DNA of 64,000 nucleotides from contig OY970209.1 of assembly GCA_963713855.1 (NCBI GenBank), positions 1,216,001-1,280,000 on the forward strand, given 5' to 3'. The translations under genes were made by a program, and so were the position numbers. Under the pieces are notes generated by a model. That model was not told the DNA's origin. It worked only from the letters and a program-made list of their open reading frames with translations, and did no database searches. The stretch's first letter is position 1. Every line of letters starts with the position of its first letter. Source of the stretch: an uncultured bacterium (GTDB lineage: Bacteria > Babelota > Babeliae > Babelales > Babelaceae). Shown piece by piece: positions 42,502-51,760 of the stretch.

Positions 42502-43332
42502 ATGAAAAAGGTATTTTTAAGCTTTTTACCGTTTTTATTCATCTACACCACTGCCGCCGACGTAAAAAACTACAAAGTTGTTGAGTGCAAACTGAAGGCA
42601 ACTGTGCGAAAGACGAGAGATAGAAAAAATACTGGGCATCCTAAGCATACCCATCCCCATCTTCCTTACAAAGAGGGAACGAGCACTAACTGGTCAGGCT
42701 ATATAGCTGCAACCAATCTGACAAACCCAACGTTGAAATCAGTAAAAAGTGTTTTCGGTTCTTGGACGGTGCCTTCAGTAAGCGCATCAGCTCATAACAC
42801 TTATTGCGCTATCTGGATTGGTATAGATGGCTATACAAACGGATCTGTCGAGCAAATTGGCACTTCGCATGAATGGGTACAAGGGCGTCAAGTCGATTCA
42901 GCATGGTTTGAGATGTACCCAAACTTTTCGTACGAGATTACGGGCTTTCCTCTCAAAAAAGGTGATTTAATTGGCGCATCAGTAGTGTATTTGGGAAATA
43001 ATACCTTTCAACTATCCCTCTTTAATCACACAAGAAAAGTGCAAACAACGGTACCAACCACTCGCACGAAAGCTTCGTATGCTCAGAGAAATAGCGCTGA
43101 ATGGATAGTAGAAGCACCCTATCTTGATGGCATCTTACCGTTGTCACACTTTGGCAATGTTACGTTTTCAAACTGCCTTGCAAACATAGATGGCACGCTT
43201 GGTCCGATAGTGAACAAAAAATGGAAAGATACCACACTTACCATGGTAACAAATACGGGTATTGATAAAGCGACCGTTTCGAAATTGTCAGCAAACGGCA
43301 AAGGCTTTGAAGTTTCTTGGAGACATGAGTGA
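42502..43332 (+). CDS. Secreted G1-family glutamic endopeptidase (eqolisin)
   Basis: STNWSGY, WIGIDG, VEQIGT (catalytic Gln), SAEWIVEAP (catalytic Glu); signal and basic propeptide. Confidence 0.9.
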   Translation: MKKVFLSFLPFLFIYTTAADVKNYKVVECKLKATVRKTRDRKNTGHPKHTHPHLPYKEGTSTNWSGYIAATNLTNPTLKSVKSVFGSWTVPSVSASAHNTYCAIWIGIDGYTNGSVEQIGTSHEWVQGRQVDSAWFEMYPNFSYEITGFPLKKGDLIGASVVYLGNNTFQLSLFNHTRKVQTTVPTTRTKASYAQRNSAEWIVEAPYLDGILPLSHFGNVTFSNCLANIDGTLGPIVNKKWKDTTLTMVTNTGIDKATVSKLSANGKGFEVSWRHE

Positions 43333-44409: not shown

Positions 44410-45000
44410 TTACAATGTCTCTGATATCAATATTCCCCGCTCCAATAGGATATGTACACATTCAATAATCTCTTCAGCTTTGGTAAACGAGGTCTTGTCA
44501 TCAACCTTTGCTATCAAAGATACATAAAGCCCATAAAAATAATAAGCGAGCAAGAACATAATTCCAGCTCCAAACGCAGCGCCCATGGCTTTGAAGCCCG
44601 ATGACCTATTCCAACCGCACAATAGCAGAGTTCCTATAAGAGAAATCGTGACAGAACTGATAGCAAATTCTGAGGCACCTCTTTTTTCTCTCTCCATTCT
44701 TTGTAGCTCTAAGTGAAGAAATCTTTCAACTCGATACCGCAATAGAGGATCCGATACTAAAAGCTCTTCTAATTCAGGTAGTGAAAACTGATTTGAATAG
44801 CAGCGGTTTTCACGTCTAAGCCTAATAATCAATTTTGCAAGAAACGAATCTAAATCGTCCGCACCGATCTTTTCGCCTTTTAAGCCTAAATTTGACCATA
44901 GTGATTGCTCAAAACAGCTATCGTCAGAGTCTTGAGCACAAAGATTTAAATACGAAGAACCGTAAAACAGAACAAGCAAAAGAATGCTTTTGTTCCACAC
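44410..45000 (-). CDS. Tandem-array paralog (type B): signal peptide + bilobed hydrophobic hairpin
   Basis: W-x2-LGL motif, two TM helices, FTKAEEIIEC. Confidence 0.7.
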   Translation of the reverse strand: MWNKSILLLVLFYGSSYLNLCAQDSDDSCFEQSLWSNLGLKGEKIGADDLDSFLAKLIIRLRRENRCYSNQFSLPELEELLVSDPLLRYRVERFLHLELQRMEREKRGASEFAISSVTISLIGTLLLCGWNRSSGFKAMGAAFGAGIMFLLAYYFYGLYVSLIAKVDDKTSFTKAEEIIECVHILLERGILISETL

Positions 45001-45036
45001 GAGGTAACTCCTTAAAAAGGGGTGCTAAAGTTCTAC

Positions 45037-45630
45037 TTAAGCCGCGTGAGAAGTCGCTATAATTTCCAACTCCTCAGCTCCTTTTAAAAGTTTTTCCAAG
45101 CACTGTATCACTTCGGTCTCACTTTTAAAAGGCTCATCATGTGAAAGGAAGAAGGTCACGTGATTGTATAAGTCAGCCGACATCACGAGAGCCCCCGTAA
45201 GTGGTATAGTGCTTATAGCGCCTAGGATAGTACTTATAACACCTGATCTTCTAGATCCCAGATAAAAGAGTGTTGCGAACAAAACATATGCCACAACGGG
45301 AGCTGTACCCATGTAAAAAAAGCTGTTTATTTCCTCATTCTCAGCTTTTTTGCTTTTGCTCATAGCAGACGCAATTGCTTCATCAAGGTGAGGAGAATCC
45401 AACAGGCTTTTTAAAATATCAACGGATAAATTGGACCTACAATCATGAAAAATTTGTTTTTCGAAAAACAGATCCATGAGATGGGCAGCTAGCTCATCGG
45501 CATTCATGTGGTCTGCAAATTGGTAAAATGTGCTCGCTTCTTTTACGCTATGATCGTCAATTTGCGCGTGTGAACTTACAAATGAGCAACTTGCTAAAAT
45601 GATGCTCATGATGAAAGAAATTTTGTACAT
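45037..45630 (-). CDS. Tandem-array paralog (type A)
   Basis: Signal SIILASCSF, two TM helices, PFKSETEVIQC. Confidence 0.7.
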   Translation of the reverse strand: MYKISFIMSIILASCSFVSSHAQIDDHSVKEASTFYQFADHMNADELAAHLMDLFFEKQIFHDCRSNLSVDILKSLLDSPHLDEAIASAMSKSKKAENEEINSFFYMGTAPVVAYVLFATLFYLGSRRSGVISTILGAISTIPLTGALVMSADLYNHVTFFLSHDEPFKSETEVIQCLEKLLKGAEELEIIATSHAA

Positions 45631-45770
45631 ACCCTGACTCCTTCGAGGCGGTGAACAATTAATTATAGGTAATCTTTATCATATTTGACACGCTGCCCAC
45701 TTTTCTAAAAAAACCGTAAAAAGCGACATCTAACTCAGTAATTTGCTTTTTTCATAGTTCATTGGACAAA

Positions 45771-46376
45771 TCATGCATTATCTATTGCTTCAGCATCTTC
45801 ACTTTCTTTTAAAAGCTCTTGAAAGCACTCAATAATCTCTCCAGTCTCACTGAATCGCGTATTTTCATCAATTGTTGGCTTAAATAAAAAGCTCATATAA
45901 AACGCAAGAGCGGCTATACCTGCTGCTCCAGAAAATGATCCACAGGCTGCAGATGCGACACCCGAGCGTTTGGCCGCCAAATAGAAAAATAGCCCACTTA
46001 AAAGCGCCGATGCCAGCGCCGTTGAGCCGATTCCCATTGTGAATACTTTAGCTCTTCCCTTTCTTTTTGCTTCTTCTAAAAGGGCTCTTTCAACTCGATC
46101 CTTCAAGTTATTCGACTTTAGTAGCTTTTTTACGTCATCTTTTTCGAACTGACTTACATAGCAAGATTCAAACCTTTGGATTCTTCTTATCCAATCTTCA
46201 AGTTCCCAATCTAAGGTATCCGCATCGCTATCATTCTTTTGCAAGTTTAAAAATGACCACATAAACTCGCTTAACCTAAAAGGCTTTTTGATTGGCTCTT
46301 CAGTTTCTTTAGCGAGAATATTTACGCACACAAAACTGAGCAAAATAGCAAAAAAAAATGTACTTTTTTTCAACAC
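45771..46376 (-). CDS. Tandem-array paralog (type B)
   Basis: WSFLNLQ, two TM helices, FSETGEIIEC. Confidence 0.7.
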   Translation of the reverse strand: MLKKSTFFFAILLSFVCVNILAKETEEPIKKPFRLSEFMWSFLNLQKNDSDADTLDWELEDWIRRIQRFESCYVSQFEKDDVKKLLKSNNLKDRVERALLEEAKRKGRAKVFTMGIGSTALASALLSGLFFYLAAKRSGVASAACGSFSGAAGIAALAFYMSFLFKPTIDENTRFSETGEIIECFQELLKESEDAEAIDNA

Positions 46377-46463
46377 GATAACTCCTATAAAGCAAAAATA
46401 ACTAAAGACTCAATTTATATAAATATAGCCTAAAAACAAGTTATTTTTTGATTATATAAAAGC

Positions 46464-47045
46464 CTATTTTCGCACTTGCTTAGAGTGTTCTTTATAAAGA
46501 ATATGTACAAGCTCAATGATCTCGTTCTGATTTTCAAAAGAATCTCCACTTAATATAGTAAGAAGTTTTTTACTAAATTCATAAGCTTCCCCATAAGACG
46601 TTAACATAGTAAGCACGCTTATAACGAATAACGAATACCGTTGAAATCCTGTTACTTTAGCCGCAACGATGAGAACATTAGCTGAAAAAAGCATCATCCC
46701 TGTTTGCGCAACCGCATCGCCGAACACGAAGAGCAGTTGCTTAAAGTGCTCTTTTGACTCTTCCCGTAGCGCTCTTTGCACTACTGCCTCAAGATTTTCA
46801 AAATCTACTAAATCTTTTAAATCTTCAGGTAGTATGGCTTCAGCCAGTGGTGCGCCATTTCTTTTCACCCGGATTAAGTCTTCGATGGCCCTTTCTAAAT
46901 AACCTTCGCAATCACTATAATCACGCTGCAAGCCCAGATAGGGCCATGGATCAAAGCTACCTCTATTATTTTTTGCCTTAGAGCACGTACCGGCAAAGAA
47001 AGCCGTCAACAAAATGTATAAAAAGGCAAATCTTCTTATCACCAA
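46464..47045 (-). CDS. Tandem-array paralog (type B, divergent)
   Basis: WPYLGLQ, two TM helices, FENQNEIIEL. Confidence 0.65.
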   Translation of the reverse strand: MVIRRFAFLYILLTAFFAGTCSKAKNNRGSFDPWPYLGLQRDYSDCEGYLERAIEDLIRVKRNGAPLAEAILPEDLKDLVDFENLEAVVQRALREESKEHFKQLLFVFGDAVAQTGMMLFSANVLIVAAKVTGFQRYSLFVISVLTMLTSYGEAYEFSKKLLTILSGDSFENQNEIIELVHILYKEHSKQVRK

Positions 47046-47055
47046 AGAAAATACC

Positions 47056-47673
47056 CTAATTTAAAAATTCACCTTCTGATTGCACTGTCTCGGCTAAATT
47101 TTGAGCTTCTTTTAGAAGTTTCCGGAGACATTCTATTACTTCATCCGAGCTAGAAAAAGGCTTATCGAGTGAAAGCTGATAGTCCACTTGTTCGTACAAA
47201 TTAAAACTTTGGACTAGAGCGATCGCCATGGGTATTACACCGGCTGCTCCTAAGCTAGTACTTGCTAAACCTGCTGTCTTGGATCCTAAAATAAAGCACG
47301 CAGCACCCACTATATATACTCCAAGAATAATGCTTCCAGAAGTAAAAAAGCCCCATATTTTTTCTTTTTCTTCTTTTTCAGCCTCTTTTAACGCTAATGC
47401 GATTCCAAGACCTAGATGATCAGAGTTCAAGACGCGTTTTAGATCTTAACTTTCTAACTCTGAATAACATTCTTTAAAAAGTCGCTTATTTTCAAGTACA
47501 TGCCGAAGATGTAAAACAAGCACATCCAAAGTCCAGCTATCTGTATTCTGATGATTAGAAATGCGGTAAGTTCCTTCTACTTCACCGTCTGTGGAGGTGT
47601 TTGCTTGTAAAGTTAAAAATGAGCAACTTGCTAAAATGATGCTGATATAAAAAAAGATCTTGTAACGTAACAT
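47056..47673 (-). pseudogene. Tandem-array paralog (type A) interrupted by an in-frame TAA
   Basis: ORFs 47446-47694 and 47056-47430 are in the same frame (ELES*DLKRVLNS); joined product aligns with 45037-45630. Confidence 0.75.
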
Positions 47674-49222: not shown

Positions 49223-49633
49223 TCAGTCACCAAATACTTGCTTATGCCAATATGCTTTTTTACCTTCGTAAAACCATTTTTTGTTATTTTTGGTCATAAA
49301 TCTTTTAAGTTGCTTCATGTCTATTTTGTAACGGTAGAATAAAGCAAGTAGATCCCTCAGATCAGCATCAAGAAGTTCATCTCTCGTTACAATGAGATGT
49401 ATTGCGTCCTTAACGCCTTTAACATTGGCAATATAAGCGCCGTGTCTTAACCACTCGAAAAAAGCGATTTCGTCAACTGGTGAATAGAATATCACCCTCT
49501 TACAAATAAGAGTATTCTTATCGGTCTTTGTTGCATTCTCCTCAGCTTCATTCTGAGGATAGACGTTGTGGTGACGGCCTGAAGGATGAACAACATCCCA
49601 ATGAGGAGTATAGTAATTTTTATTCTTGTTCAT
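49223..49633 (-). CDS. Orphan immunity-like protein fused to a toxin C-terminal relic
   Basis: N-terminal PHWDVVHPSGRHHNVYP resembles the end of Ntox37-type RNase toxins; last gene of the toxin cassette run. Confidence 0.55.
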   Translation of the reverse strand: MNKNKNYYTPHWDVVHPSGRHHNVYPQNEAEENATKTDKNTLICKRVIFYSPVDEIAFFEWLRHGAYIANVKGVKDAIHLIVTRDELLDADLRDLLALFYRYKIDMKQLKRFMTKNNKKWFYEGKKAYWHKQVFGD

Positions 49634-49664
49634 ATGAATGATAGCTCCTGCTCCATAGTTTCAT

Positions 49665-49889
49665 TCACTTTTTACCTTCGATAGCTTTAATGATACTTGC
49701 TACAACTATGTCTTGAGCCGTGGTAAGCTCTATATCTTTATTAGCAATAAGCTCTTCTATTTCTTTTTCAACAATAGGCCAAAGTGGATAGGATTTATAA
49801 TATGCTATACGTTCTTGATAAGTCATGTGCTTATTTTTTGATTTCACTTTTGCTTTCATCGATTTGAAGCTTTTTAGTCGCCATACCAA
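49665..49889 (-). CDS. Small hypothetical protein, probable orphan immunity
   Basis: Co-oriented and overlapping within the cassette; helical YPLWPIVEKEIEELIAN; start uncertain. Confidence 0.45.
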   Translation of the reverse strand: MVWRLKSFKSMKAKVKSKNKHMTYQERIAYYKSYPLWPIVEKEIEELIANKDIELTTAQDIVVASIIKAIEGKK

Positions 49890-50269
49890 AAGCCATGACT
49901 AATAGTGCCACCCATGCCCTTGGCTTTTGCCTTTTGCTCAGGCGATAGACCCAGGAAATATATTCCTTCCCCTCTTTCCAAAGCTTTGCTCATATTTTTT
50001 TGCCAGTCCTTATAGATTTTGCCTTCAGGAATGATTCTTTGAGAAAATTCAAATAAAGCTTCATAAAAATAGGGAAGCGACGAAATTTCTTGTAAAGTAT
50101 CACATACTTCGATGCTTTCAACAGCAACTATTCCAAATTTTGACAAATGTTTTGTAACTATATCGAGAAGTGGCTGCGGATCTACACGATTAAAAATTCG
50201 ACCCCACGTTATGAACCCTACTATGCCAAAGGTCTTGTCCACTATCTTAATGCCAACTAAATCTTCCAT
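49874..50269 (-). CDS. Probable orphan immunity protein
   Basis: Directly downstream of the cognate immunity gene; FITWGRI...PYFYEALF. Confidence 0.55.
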   Translation of the reverse strand: MEDLVGIKIVDKTFGIVGFITWGRIFNRVDPQPLLDIVTKHLSKFGIVAVESIEVCDTLQEISSLPYFYEALFEFSQRIIPEGKIYKDWQKNMSKALERGEGIYFLGLSPEQKAKAKGMGGTISHGFWYGD

Positions 50270-50309: not shown

Positions 50310-50780
50310 TTATTCTGCACATAGTAGTCCACTGTTCAAGTCTTCTAATTTTACAACCCATTCAGAAATTTTTCCCTCTTGCCCGAGATGGTATTTTGGC
50401 CCAATAAAGCTATAGCAATCGTCGACGGTAAAAGCACCTGGAGCTATTGTTTCTCTAAGAAGTTCTGAAACTAAGATTTGATTATGGAGGATGATTTTAT
50501 CGTTTTCCCTATACAGGGTCCACCAGTTAATAAAAGGTCTTTCTATCCCCGGCACCATATTAGGATTTTGCACTGTAGTCACTAGGCACGATGTTGGTAA
50601 CTTTTTTATCCTCTCAAGCCCTTCATGCCACTGTCTCTTATAATCTCCCAAGCTCCATTGAGCAACAGACATGACAAACTTTTCTTCAAAGTCGTTAATT
50701 TGTATTCTGCCCCAATAGCTAAGTAAACCATTTATTTTCTTCGGCTTATCGCTAACTACTTGTATTAATAGGCCTTTCAT
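50310..50780 (-). CDS. CdiI-like immunity protein (Enterobacter cloacae CdiI type)
   Basis: IQINDFEE, WSLGDYKRQW, WTLYRE, terminal KISEW match CdiI-ECL; TAATG stop/start overlap with the toxin. Confidence 0.8.
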   Translation of the reverse strand: MKGLLIQVVSDKPKKINGLLSYWGRIQINDFEEKFVMSVAQWSLGDYKRQWHEGLERIKKLPTSCLVTTVQNPNMVPGIERPFINWWTLYRENDKIILHNQILVSELLRETIAPGAFTVDDCYSFIGPKYHLGQEGKISEWVVKLEDLNSGLLCAE

Positions 50781-51640
50781 TAGTCTCCTACCCTGTCTTT
50801 TAAATCATCATCTGAGTAGGTTCCCTCACGGTTTCCATGCTTATCAAAAACTTTCCAACGACCTCCCTTATGACCATCGACATCAGGGGAAACATATCTC
50901 GTACCATCTTTAAACACAGGTTGTCCGTGAGAATCTATCGGAGCATCATTTACTTCTTTCCATCCTTTCTCACCTGCTATTTTACGGGCGTCTTTTCTGG
51001 TCATGTTCTGAATAATATCATCATAATCATAATCTACTCCACCTTTTGCACCCATCTTTCTCATCGCTCTATTAACAGCCCAAGTTGCCGCCAAAGCACC
51101 TACCGTATATACTGTCGCAGCTCCGATAGCATCCCATCCAGCAAATGCAATACCACCTGCGCCCCAGACGATCAGCGGTATAACATTATGTACAAGAATG
51201 TCTTCATGAGATATACAGAAATTTTGAAACTCCTCTACAGCGATATTGTATGCAACATCTTTCAATGCTACTGCTTTTACATGCTCAACAACAACCGGTT
51301 CAAAACAGTTCTTCAAAAGAACATGCCCAGCTTTTAGTTCATCAGCTAGAATCCAATCTTTTTCTGGCGCCAAATAAAACTTATGATCATCTGCCACAGT
51401 TATTGCTTGACCATTAACCGTAACGATAAAAAACCCACCTGCGTGCTTTTGTTGAGTGTGGGTAACTCTTCTTTCAACACATGCGCCTTGCAAATCGAAG
51501 CTGATAACGACATCATCTACTTTAAGTTTCTCGATGGGTGTATAACCTTCTGGCGTTTTGACTAATGTTCCGGCTATAAATCCTTCACCATGAGCAAGGC
51601 TTATTGTTAAAAGGCATAAAAGTATTAACATTCTTTTCAT
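50780..51640 (-). CDS. Polymorphic toxin: signal peptide + Hint domain + hydrophobic segment + Ntox21-like RNase
   Basis: GFIAGTLV...YNIAVEEFQNF...ILVHN Hint motifs; SHGQPVF...YVSPDVDGHKGGRWK...GTY toxin motifs. Confidence 0.85.
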   Translation of the reverse strand: MKRMLILLCLLTISLAHGEGFIAGTLVKTPEGYTPIEKLKVDDVVISFDLQGACVERRVTHTQQKHAGGFFIVTVNGQAITVADDHKFYLAPEKDWILADELKAGHVLLKNCFEPVVVEHVKAVALKDVAYNIAVEEFQNFCISHEDILVHNVIPLIVWGAGGIAFAGWDAIGAATVYTVGALAATWAVNRAMRKMGAKGGVDYDYDDIIQNMTRKDARKIAGEKGWKEVNDAPIDSHGQPVFKDGTRYVSPDVDGHKGGRWKVFDKHGNREGTYSDDDLKDRVGD

Positions 51641-51760
51641 AATATTTTTTAACCTCAGATATTGCTAACGTACAATCAAAATTCGCTTTATTTTAGAACA
51701 AACTATGGTAAAGTCAATGTTTTCTAAGTAATATGAGAAAAACGACAAACTCGAGAAAAC

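Follow-up and report, generated by a model that had tools for sequence, protein, structure and literature searches.

The toxin gene and its coupled immunity gene

We analysed a 64,000-nucleotide stretch of contig OY970209.1 (hereafter the window), which comes from an uncultured bacterium of the Babelaceae. On its minus strand lie two overlapping open reading frames (ORFs): a toxin gene of 286 aa (window 50780–51640) and, behind it, a gene of 156 aa (50310–50780). The toxin stop and the start of the second gene share the sequence TAATG, and AGGAG lies just 5′ of the overlap; the ORF list and the sequence confirm the pair and its coupling as given in a preliminary description of this locus. The toxin consists of a signal peptide-like N-terminus (aa 1–18; 51587–51640), a Hint domain of the A-type bacterial intein-like (BIL) or PT-HINT kind (aa 20–152; 51185–51583), a Gly/Ala-rich hydrophobic stretch directly behind the predicted cleavage site (aa 153–190; 51071–51184) and an Ntox21 RNase domain (aa 214–286; 50783–51001). 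Judged by this domain content, the protein is a polymorphic toxin of the PT-HINT group, and the overlapping gene is its cognate immunity gene of the CdiI type.

In Pfam searches, the toxin matched PT-HINT (PF07591) over aa 26–152 (E 4.6e-12; 46.8 bits, cut-off 27.7) and Ntox21 over aa 224–286 (E 8.8e-10; 39.3 bits, cut-off 25), and the 156-aa ORF matched CdiI_N (E 6e-18; 65.1 bits, cut-off 25). Sequence searches of the PDB paired aa 20–152 with the bacterial intein-like domain 2lwy_A (E 3.1e-12), aa 214–277 with 4ntq_A, the CdiA-CT of Enterobacter cloacae (E 5.4e-11), and the 156-aa ORF with 4ntq_B, the corresponding CdiI (E 1.9e-9). With matches above the Pfam cut-offs and to both chains of 4NTQ, the earlier call of an Ntox21-like domain with CdiI-like immunity was upheld. 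Within the motif PDVDGH...WK, residues D253, D255, H257 and K263 align to D203, D205, H207 and K214, the active site of the E. cloacae toxin (CdiA-CT ECL), whose target is the 16S rRNA between A1493 and G1494 according to the available text of PMC9086364. As all four catalytic residues are kept, the Ntox21 domain is predicted to cleave 16S rRNA as well.

Toxin aa 205–286 were modelled together with the 156-aa protein. This complex scored 0.76, and the best control 0.50; 116 of 157 solved complexes and 2 of 215 mismatched pairs attained that mark. Contacts agreed to at least 88% between runs, the partner had a predicted local distance difference test (pLDDT) value of at least 85, and both D255 and H257 lay in the modelled interface; in the crystal of the E. 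cloacae complex, CdiI contacts Asp205 (available text of PMC9086364). The model supports, rather than shows, binding of toxin and immunity protein, and the good score may only mirror likeness to, or memory of, 4NTQ, because this homologous complex has already been solved.

Together with the family comparisons below, these assignments lead us to favour, as moderately probable, a toxin–immunity pair in which the toxin is exported, cleaves itself at N152, and is used among related bacteria living in the same host cell.

The Hint domain and the adjoining hydrophobic stretch

An AlphaFold2 model of the toxin, based on an alignment of 34 family members, had a mean pLDDT of 80.1, with values > 90 for the Hint domain, 82–94 for the C-terminal domain and ∼40 for aa 157–210. 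Foldseek, run as the fold check proposed for the Hint domain, returned 2LWY as the top match (target template modelling score 0.92; root mean square deviation 1.3 Å), followed by other BIL domains and inteins. Residue G20 aligns to the Cys1 position of the 2LWY construct; where canonical database relatives begin C-F-I-A-G-T, the window protein reads G-F-I-A-G-T. Likewise, its block B is A-D-D-H instead of the T-F-D-H of 2LWY, and its C-terminal end is H151-N152 followed by V153 at +1. The preliminary description was therefore correct in assigning a Hint domain that lacks either nucleophile and ends in H-N-V. In addition, the window copy has Gln139 at the block-F His position and Asn132 at F:4.

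We collected family ORFs from 40 stretches of relatives' genomes (L019–L058) and five further stretches of the window genome; this gave 55 ORFs with a Hint domain from 19 genomes. The Hint domain is always N-terminal, its first residue falling at a median position of 25, and in 45 of 53 ORFs a hydrophobic leader (10-mer of 2.0 or more) directly precedes it. The leader of the window protein, MKR-MLILLCLLTISL-AHG, has a 12-residue hydrophobic core with A at −3 and G at −1 as read by eye, so that the signal peptide-like start described earlier holds for the window toxin and for most of the family. Hint position 1 is Gly in 49 ORFs, Ser in two, Ala in one and Cys in one, and is missing in two. The block-B His is replaced by Gln in 40 of the 55 ORFs and kept in eight; the block-F His is kept in 35 of 55, and F:4 varies among the relatives (Ser in 13, Asp in 11). 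The terminal His-Asn is present in all 51 ORFs that reach the Hint end. It is followed by a hydrophobic or small residue, with a possible nucleophile (Thr) in just two of the 51.

In 49 of 51 ORFs, the His-Asn leads into an uncharged stretch rich in Gly and Ala, with a median length of 40 residues; in most it begins right at +1. In the window protein, aa 153–190 contain a single charged residue (D170) among 38, 42% Gly plus Ala, and a Kyte–Doolittle maximum of 1.49 over 19 residues, in agreement with its first description as Gly/Ala-rich and hydrophobic. The Cys1 relatives fetched from the database are built differently: their Hint domains lie deep inside longer proteins and end in HN-C or HN-L-C. 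A search for longer homologues (502–2000 aa) of aa 19–200 found none among 949 candidates, which is weak evidence, as the relatives' genomes hold members of 534–910 aa. In a FastTree phylogeny of 79 Hint domains, all 64 Gly-1 sequences fell within a clade of 71 tips, which leaves out seven outgroup Cys-1 sequences and takes in one Cys-1 family member (L049); the support of its node was 0.106.

Without Cys1, the block-B Thr, a +1 nucleophile or an F:4 Cys, such a Hint domain would be able neither to splice nor to cut at its N-terminus. The sole remaining reaction would be cyclisation of the terminal Asn152, which would cut the N152–V153 bond and thus release the toxin by itself; the hydrophobic stretch would then lie exposed at the N-terminus of a new fragment of 134 residues that comprises stretch and RNase. 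As laid out in the available text of PMC4031507, most products of A-type BIL domains with His-Asn come from cleavage, and Asn cyclisation proceeds without a cofactor. Our main argument is that the residues of the N-terminal reactions have decayed while those of Asn cyclisation are fixed, from which we infer that C-terminal self-cleavage has been under selection.

The same residues raise the alternative that the Hint domain has lost its cleavage activity, be it only in the window copy or family-wide. It would then serve as a folded periplasmic head or as a secretion handle on a protein that is anchored as a whole in the inner membrane, and transfer would occur only by vesicles, cell fusion or lysis. 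Gln139 and Asn132 occupy two catalytic-support positions and speak for this possibility; residues at these positions assist Asn cyclisation in many inteins and are dispensable in some (available text of PMC4031507). The hydrophobic stretch should also act as a stop-transfer anchor, budding vesicles have been observed in a member of the phylum grown in culture (available text of PMC6561590), and in the literature searched we found no published cleavage test of PT-HINT in such short toxins. Still, the retention of His-Asn in 51 of 51 ORFs alongside decayed N-terminal cleavage residues is hard to explain without Asn cyclisation, and in most members the hydrophobic stretch begins precisely at +1. 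We accordingly give a non-cleaving Hint domain little credence.

Exchangeable C-termini and immunity genes

A C-terminal toxin family was recognised by Pfam in 18 of 60 family members; the other 42, a few of them truncated, gave no match. Tails above the Pfam cut-offs belonged to Ntox21, Ntox37, Ntox33, Ntox35 and, in one member, to the colicin-E3-like Cytotoxic domain, while Ntox17 and DUF4258 scored below. In one genome, two paralogues have a DNA identity of 94.5% over 853 nt, a tract that runs from shortly ahead of the start to approximately codon 282; past it, both the tail and the following gene are unrelated. Identities to the window protein for Hint domain, hydrophobic stretch and tail were 35%, 76% and 28% in the family member P0006, and 40%, 50% and 59% in P0003; given this discordance between parts, the hydrophobic stretch behaves as a separate module that can be exchanged. 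In 38 of the 47 toxins of at least 250 aa, an ORF on the same strand starts between −40 and +100 nt from the stop codon, and two of the nine that have no such ORF sit at a contig end. The families of these downstream ORFs include CdiI_N, CdiI_ImmP, DUF4279 and DUF6980. Among paralogues and orthologues, a constant N-terminal part is thus joined to variable C-terminal toxins, the arrangement by which the Aravind group defines polymorphic toxins, and the proposed check of related genomes for a common N-terminus with variable C-termini was positive.

Some of the fetched loci carry more than one immunity gene. At L029 (G008:C7; 3059–5617), the array behind one toxin consists of an Ntox37-type immunity gene, a CdiI_N gene and then a member of a 131-aa family, while at L030 (G013:C3; 2502–6152) and L020 the surroundings of the Ntox21 toxins contain two or three CdiI_N paralogues in tandem. 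The tail of the L028 toxin (G008:C6; 2990–4096), which is Ntox17-like with 23 bits, below the cut-off, ends in WDVQHPDGS like Ntox37 tails; the Pfam families Ntox17 and Ntox37 may be related.

In the window, the cognate immunity gene is followed by three further minus-strand ORFs, two of which resemble immunity genes and have no intact toxin there. The first (49874–50269) encodes 131 aa and is 44% identical both to the ORF directly behind the L028 toxin with its Ntox17-like tail and to the third ORF behind the L029 toxin of the same relative genome. It had no Pfam match and no usable match in the protein atlas, and its adjacency to toxins in this one relative suggests that it is immunity-like; a profile search of the window genome for Ntox17 gave no match, the control of that search being silent too. 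Next comes an ORF of 74 aa (49665–49889) that has no relatives among the fetched loci. In the third, of 136 aa (49223–49633), the C-terminal tip (∼25 residues) of an Ntox37-type toxin (49556–49630; PHWDVVHPSG..NVYP) is fused in frame to an Ntox37-type immunity protein (aa 38–135), as seen by Pfam and locus comparison. Around the position at which its immunity homologues begin, the ORF contains no Met, so a fusion of toxin tip and immunity protein may be its actual product. The sole Ntox37 toxin of the window genome is a broken copy. Toxin-less immunity genes and toxin tips behind a main toxin pair, as found here at 49223–50269, are a further mark of polymorphic toxins, and such immunity genes are expected if toxins come from other cells.

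These findings leave hardly any room for the view that the pair is a non-exported toxin–antitoxin addiction module that just happens to carry polymorphic-toxin domains. Its genes do overlap tightly, and small toxin–antidote pairs are common in reduced genomes; yet a signal-like N-terminus precedes the Hint domain in 45 of 53 members, and two features seen here, a constant N-terminal part joined to a variable C-terminal one and immunity genes that lack a toxin, typify secreted polymorphic toxins.

A more serious question is whether the toxin is directed at the host. Such an effector would be exported into the protist to cut small-subunit rRNA of its cytosol or mitochondria, while the sole task of the immunity protein would be to shield the producer's own ribosomes until export. 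The decoding-centre target of Ntox21-type toxins is widely conserved, the genome is small (a single contig of 1.52 Mb), and the toxin has no visible part that could bind a bacterial receptor, all of which would suit a role in the host. One homologue carries the name Candidatus Babeliaceae, a group that the available text of PMC6561590 describes as protist parasites that live inside the cell and secrete numerous signal-peptide proteins. However, immunity-like genes without an intact toxin occur in the window and elsewhere in the genome, and several immunity types are arrayed behind single toxins in relatives; both are sensible only against toxins that come from other cells. The coupled gene downstream of 38 of 47 toxins also argues against a host effector, and the host-directed toxins of endosymbionts are, in the available text of Zhang et al. 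(2012; PMC3482391), those without immunity genes. We consider a host-directed effector unlikely on these grounds. The preliminary description had named co-infecting bacteria and host organellar ribosomes as possible targets, and the second of these is weakened by the toxin-less immunity-like genes. Collectively, the swappable C-termini, the coupled immunity genes and the toxin-less immunity genes point to competition among related bacteria in a shared host cell.

Delivery, genomic setting and relation to known systems

For a toxin used between bacteria, we envisage the following course. In the producer cytoplasm the immunity protein would keep the RNase inactive; Sec would export the toxin, and signal peptidase would trim it just before the Hint domain. 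After the cut at N152, the fragment would reach another bacterium, perhaps by the type II secretion-like machinery of the genome or by vesicles, cross the inner membrane of the target aided by its hydrophobic stretch, and cleave 16S rRNA at the decoding centre. Self-cleavage, outer-membrane export and target entry are steps that we infer.

None of the genes within ∼10 kb on either side that are matched by Pfam encodes a transporter or part of a secretion system (several ORFs of this neighbourhood are unmatched), so the earlier statement that no transporter is nearby holds locally; it fails genome-wide, as two secretins and two ATPases of the type II secretion system (T2SS) kind are encoded elsewhere. 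Both secretin genes, of ∼1000 aa each, lie within 6 kb (G000:C1:253699–259557), and two copies of gspD, the secretin gene, were reported for all TM6 genomes (available text of PMC4776705). A type II-like route or vesicles are possible ways past the inner membrane. In line with what had been noted before, the toxin has no CdiA stalk and no Rhs, LXG, PAAR or type VI secretion system (T6SS) part detectable by Pfam, and the window genome has no match to a T6SS sheath. It also has no match to the ShlB family (TpsB), in a search whose control gave no signal anywhere. Two candidate partners were rejected: an 'ABC transporter' cluster near five toxin loci consists of ABC ATPases that are unrelated and differ in architecture, and a cluster of ankyrin proteins is likewise general.

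Several observations weigh against the course of events that we favour. Given Gln139 and Asn132, cleavage of the window copy may be slow or lost. The 38-residue hydrophobic stretch is expected to lodge in the inner membrane of the producer, which leaves its exit unexplained. Membrane entry through a 'hairpin', as first proposed, would require the stretch to form one, but it has a pLDDT of ∼40, is not folded in the model, and is followed by a charge that obeys no consistent rule among family members (18 positive, 11 neutral and 22 negative); the label is therefore unproven. No accessory gene recurs beside the family toxins in the fetched loci, nor is a receptor-binding part visible. Moreover, four of the seven family copies in the window genome are broken, and with the node support given above we do not claim the Gly-1 Hint domains as one monophyletic clade.

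The seven copies were found by profile search. Apparently intact are the window copy, a copy that ends in Ntox33 and has a DUF4279 ORF behind it, and a copy with an unassigned tail; of the broken ones, one has a TAG and a frameshift in its Ntox37 tail, one has lost its tail, one misses the Hint end and one is split over two frames. Pfam-matched neighbours of the window pair within ∼10 kb are housekeeping genes (NIF3, M17 aminopeptidase, CTP synthase, NAD kinase and FtsW/RodA) and the unrelated genes of an ankyrin-repeat protein, an AAA-type ATPase and a Peptidase_A4 protein. No tRNA gene lies within 40–60 kb of the window, and there is hence no sign of an integrated island. A promoter-like site on the minus strand (51690–51717; TTGACT, 16 nt, TAAAAT) lies ∼50 nt 5′ of the toxin start; sites of this kind are no commoner than chance in a promoter and terminator scan of the region (8 found, 8.6 expected). 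Two further observations concern other ORFs of the window. At 44410–47430, also on the minus strand, stands a tandem array of five paralogous ORFs of 124–201 aa, none matched by Pfam, each with a signal-like start, Gly/Ala-rich hydrophobic segments and the common C-terminal E(I/V)I(E/Q)C. On the plus strand, 42502–43332 encodes a secreted-looking protein of 276 aa that belongs to Peptidase_A4 (eqolisin; E 7.2e-32), a mostly fungal family.

The preliminary description had called the system its best candidate for an under-described one, but it does not lie outside known categories. Table 1 of Zhang et al. (2012), as far as available, lists Sec-dependent polymorphic toxins with a HINT protease and Ntox21 together with HINT, and the authors proposed HINT as a toxin releaser (PMC3482391). 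NCBI names one homologue of the window protein in the same sense, as 'polymorphic toxin-type HINT domain-containing protein' [Candidatus Babeliaceae bacterium]. These Sec-dependent ('T2SS') HINT toxins have a signal peptide, where the window family has a signal peptide-like start, and share with it a HINT domain before a variable toxin, a downstream immunity gene and toxin-less immunity genes (available text of PMC3482391). In the window family, in contrast, nothing (no Rhs, filament or stalk) stands between predicted signal peptide and Hint domain, Cys1 is Gly family-wide, which by its residues leaves only C-terminal cleavage possible, and a hydrophobic stretch of ∼40 residues always follows the cleavage site.

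Of the contact-dependent systems, CdiA-CT/CdiI of E. cloacae ATCC 13047 (PDB 4NTQ) is the relative in both chains, with ∼28 of 64 aligned toxin residues identical. The window toxin differs from it by having no two-partner secretion (TPS) domain, filamentous haemagglutinin (FHA) repeats, VENN motif, receptor-binding domain or entry domain; by its sequence, then, the pair is not a CdiB/CdiA two-partner system, and its delivery must differ. The constant part of the MafB toxins of Neisseria is a DUF1020/MafB-N domain with a MafA lipoprotein as partner, not a Hint domain, and no partner gene recurs beside the window family. MafB toxins are otherwise similar, with a signal peptide where the window family has a signal peptide-like start, a constant N-terminal part, variable C-terminal nucleases and downstream immunity genes. 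Their route through the outer membrane is not obvious (available text of PMC3482391). The A-type BIL domain of Clostridium thermocellum (PDB 2LWY) is the best match in sequence and fold and likewise has a His-Asn end and no +1 nucleophile. However, A-type BIL domains begin with Cys and form an N-terminal thioester (available text of PMC4031507), whereas the window family starts with Gly, lacks Cys1 and has the Hint domain at the very N-terminus of the mature protein. With Gly1, Val+1 and Asn at F:4, the window Hint domain also has none of the splicing features by which inteins of classes 1–3 are defined there. Colicin E3, finally, has a cytotoxic domain that shares its fold class and the cleavage site A1493/G1494 with CdiA-CT ECL (available text of PMC9086364); unlike the window toxin, a colicin includes domains for receptor binding and translocation, and lysis proteins set it free from the cell.

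What is new here is therefore not a category. It is the minimal, apparently cleavage-only layout, in which a Hint domain directly follows the predicted signal peptide, Cys1 has been lost family-wide and a hydrophobic module always comes after the predicted cleavage site, together with its spread in what appears to be the Dependentiae. Both the Candidatus Babeliaceae name of the NCBI homologue and the pair of secretin genes are consistent with that phylum. The family profile matched 22 of 41 relatives' genomes, the window's own included, and, in an even sample of the phylum with E up to 1e-10, 69 of 151 genomes and 47 of 97 genera, with at most nine matches per genome. A search of a species-genome collection with conserved patterns yielded 106 matches, two of which were confirmed, both in one metagenome-assembled genome; these patterns were narrow and have little bearing on distribution. 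In the literature searched we found no description of the family in Dependentiae, although similarly short architectures of signal peptide plus HINT may be contained in Additional File 1 of Zhang et al. (2012), and the word 'toxin' does not occur in the available text of two genome papers (PMC6561590 and PMC4776705). Toxin-plus-immunity systems are rare among endosymbionts according to the available text of Zhang et al. (PMC3482391).

A bolder version of our proposal, which we put forward only tentatively and hold to be rather doubtful, takes the Hint domain as a self-removing N-terminal pro-domain, its own N-terminal cut being replaced by that of signal peptidase. Asn cyclisation would then be a built-in timer that unmasks a fusion peptide-like, Gly/Ala-rich N-terminus, and this would carry any attached toxin across the target membrane without a secretion machine, receptor domain or partner. 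Such a three-module kit of Hint domain, hydrophobic carrier and toxin might be a standard weapon among the protist-dwelling bacteria of the phylum in shared host cells.

If self-cleavage and use between bacteria prove true, the family would provide a naturally occurring Hint domain that has only C-terminal cleavage left as a reaction and acts as a self-removing pro-domain, the same trick that engineers achieve with Cys1-mutated inteins. The hydrophobic stretch would be a compact carrier that comes in exchangeable types and moves varied toxins across membranes, which would bear on the question of how Sec-dependent polymorphic toxins with neither a stalk nor an injection machine reach their targets. 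With 69 of 151 genomes so armed, it would also mean that reduced, host-dependent bacteria often meet and fight their relatives inside their hosts.

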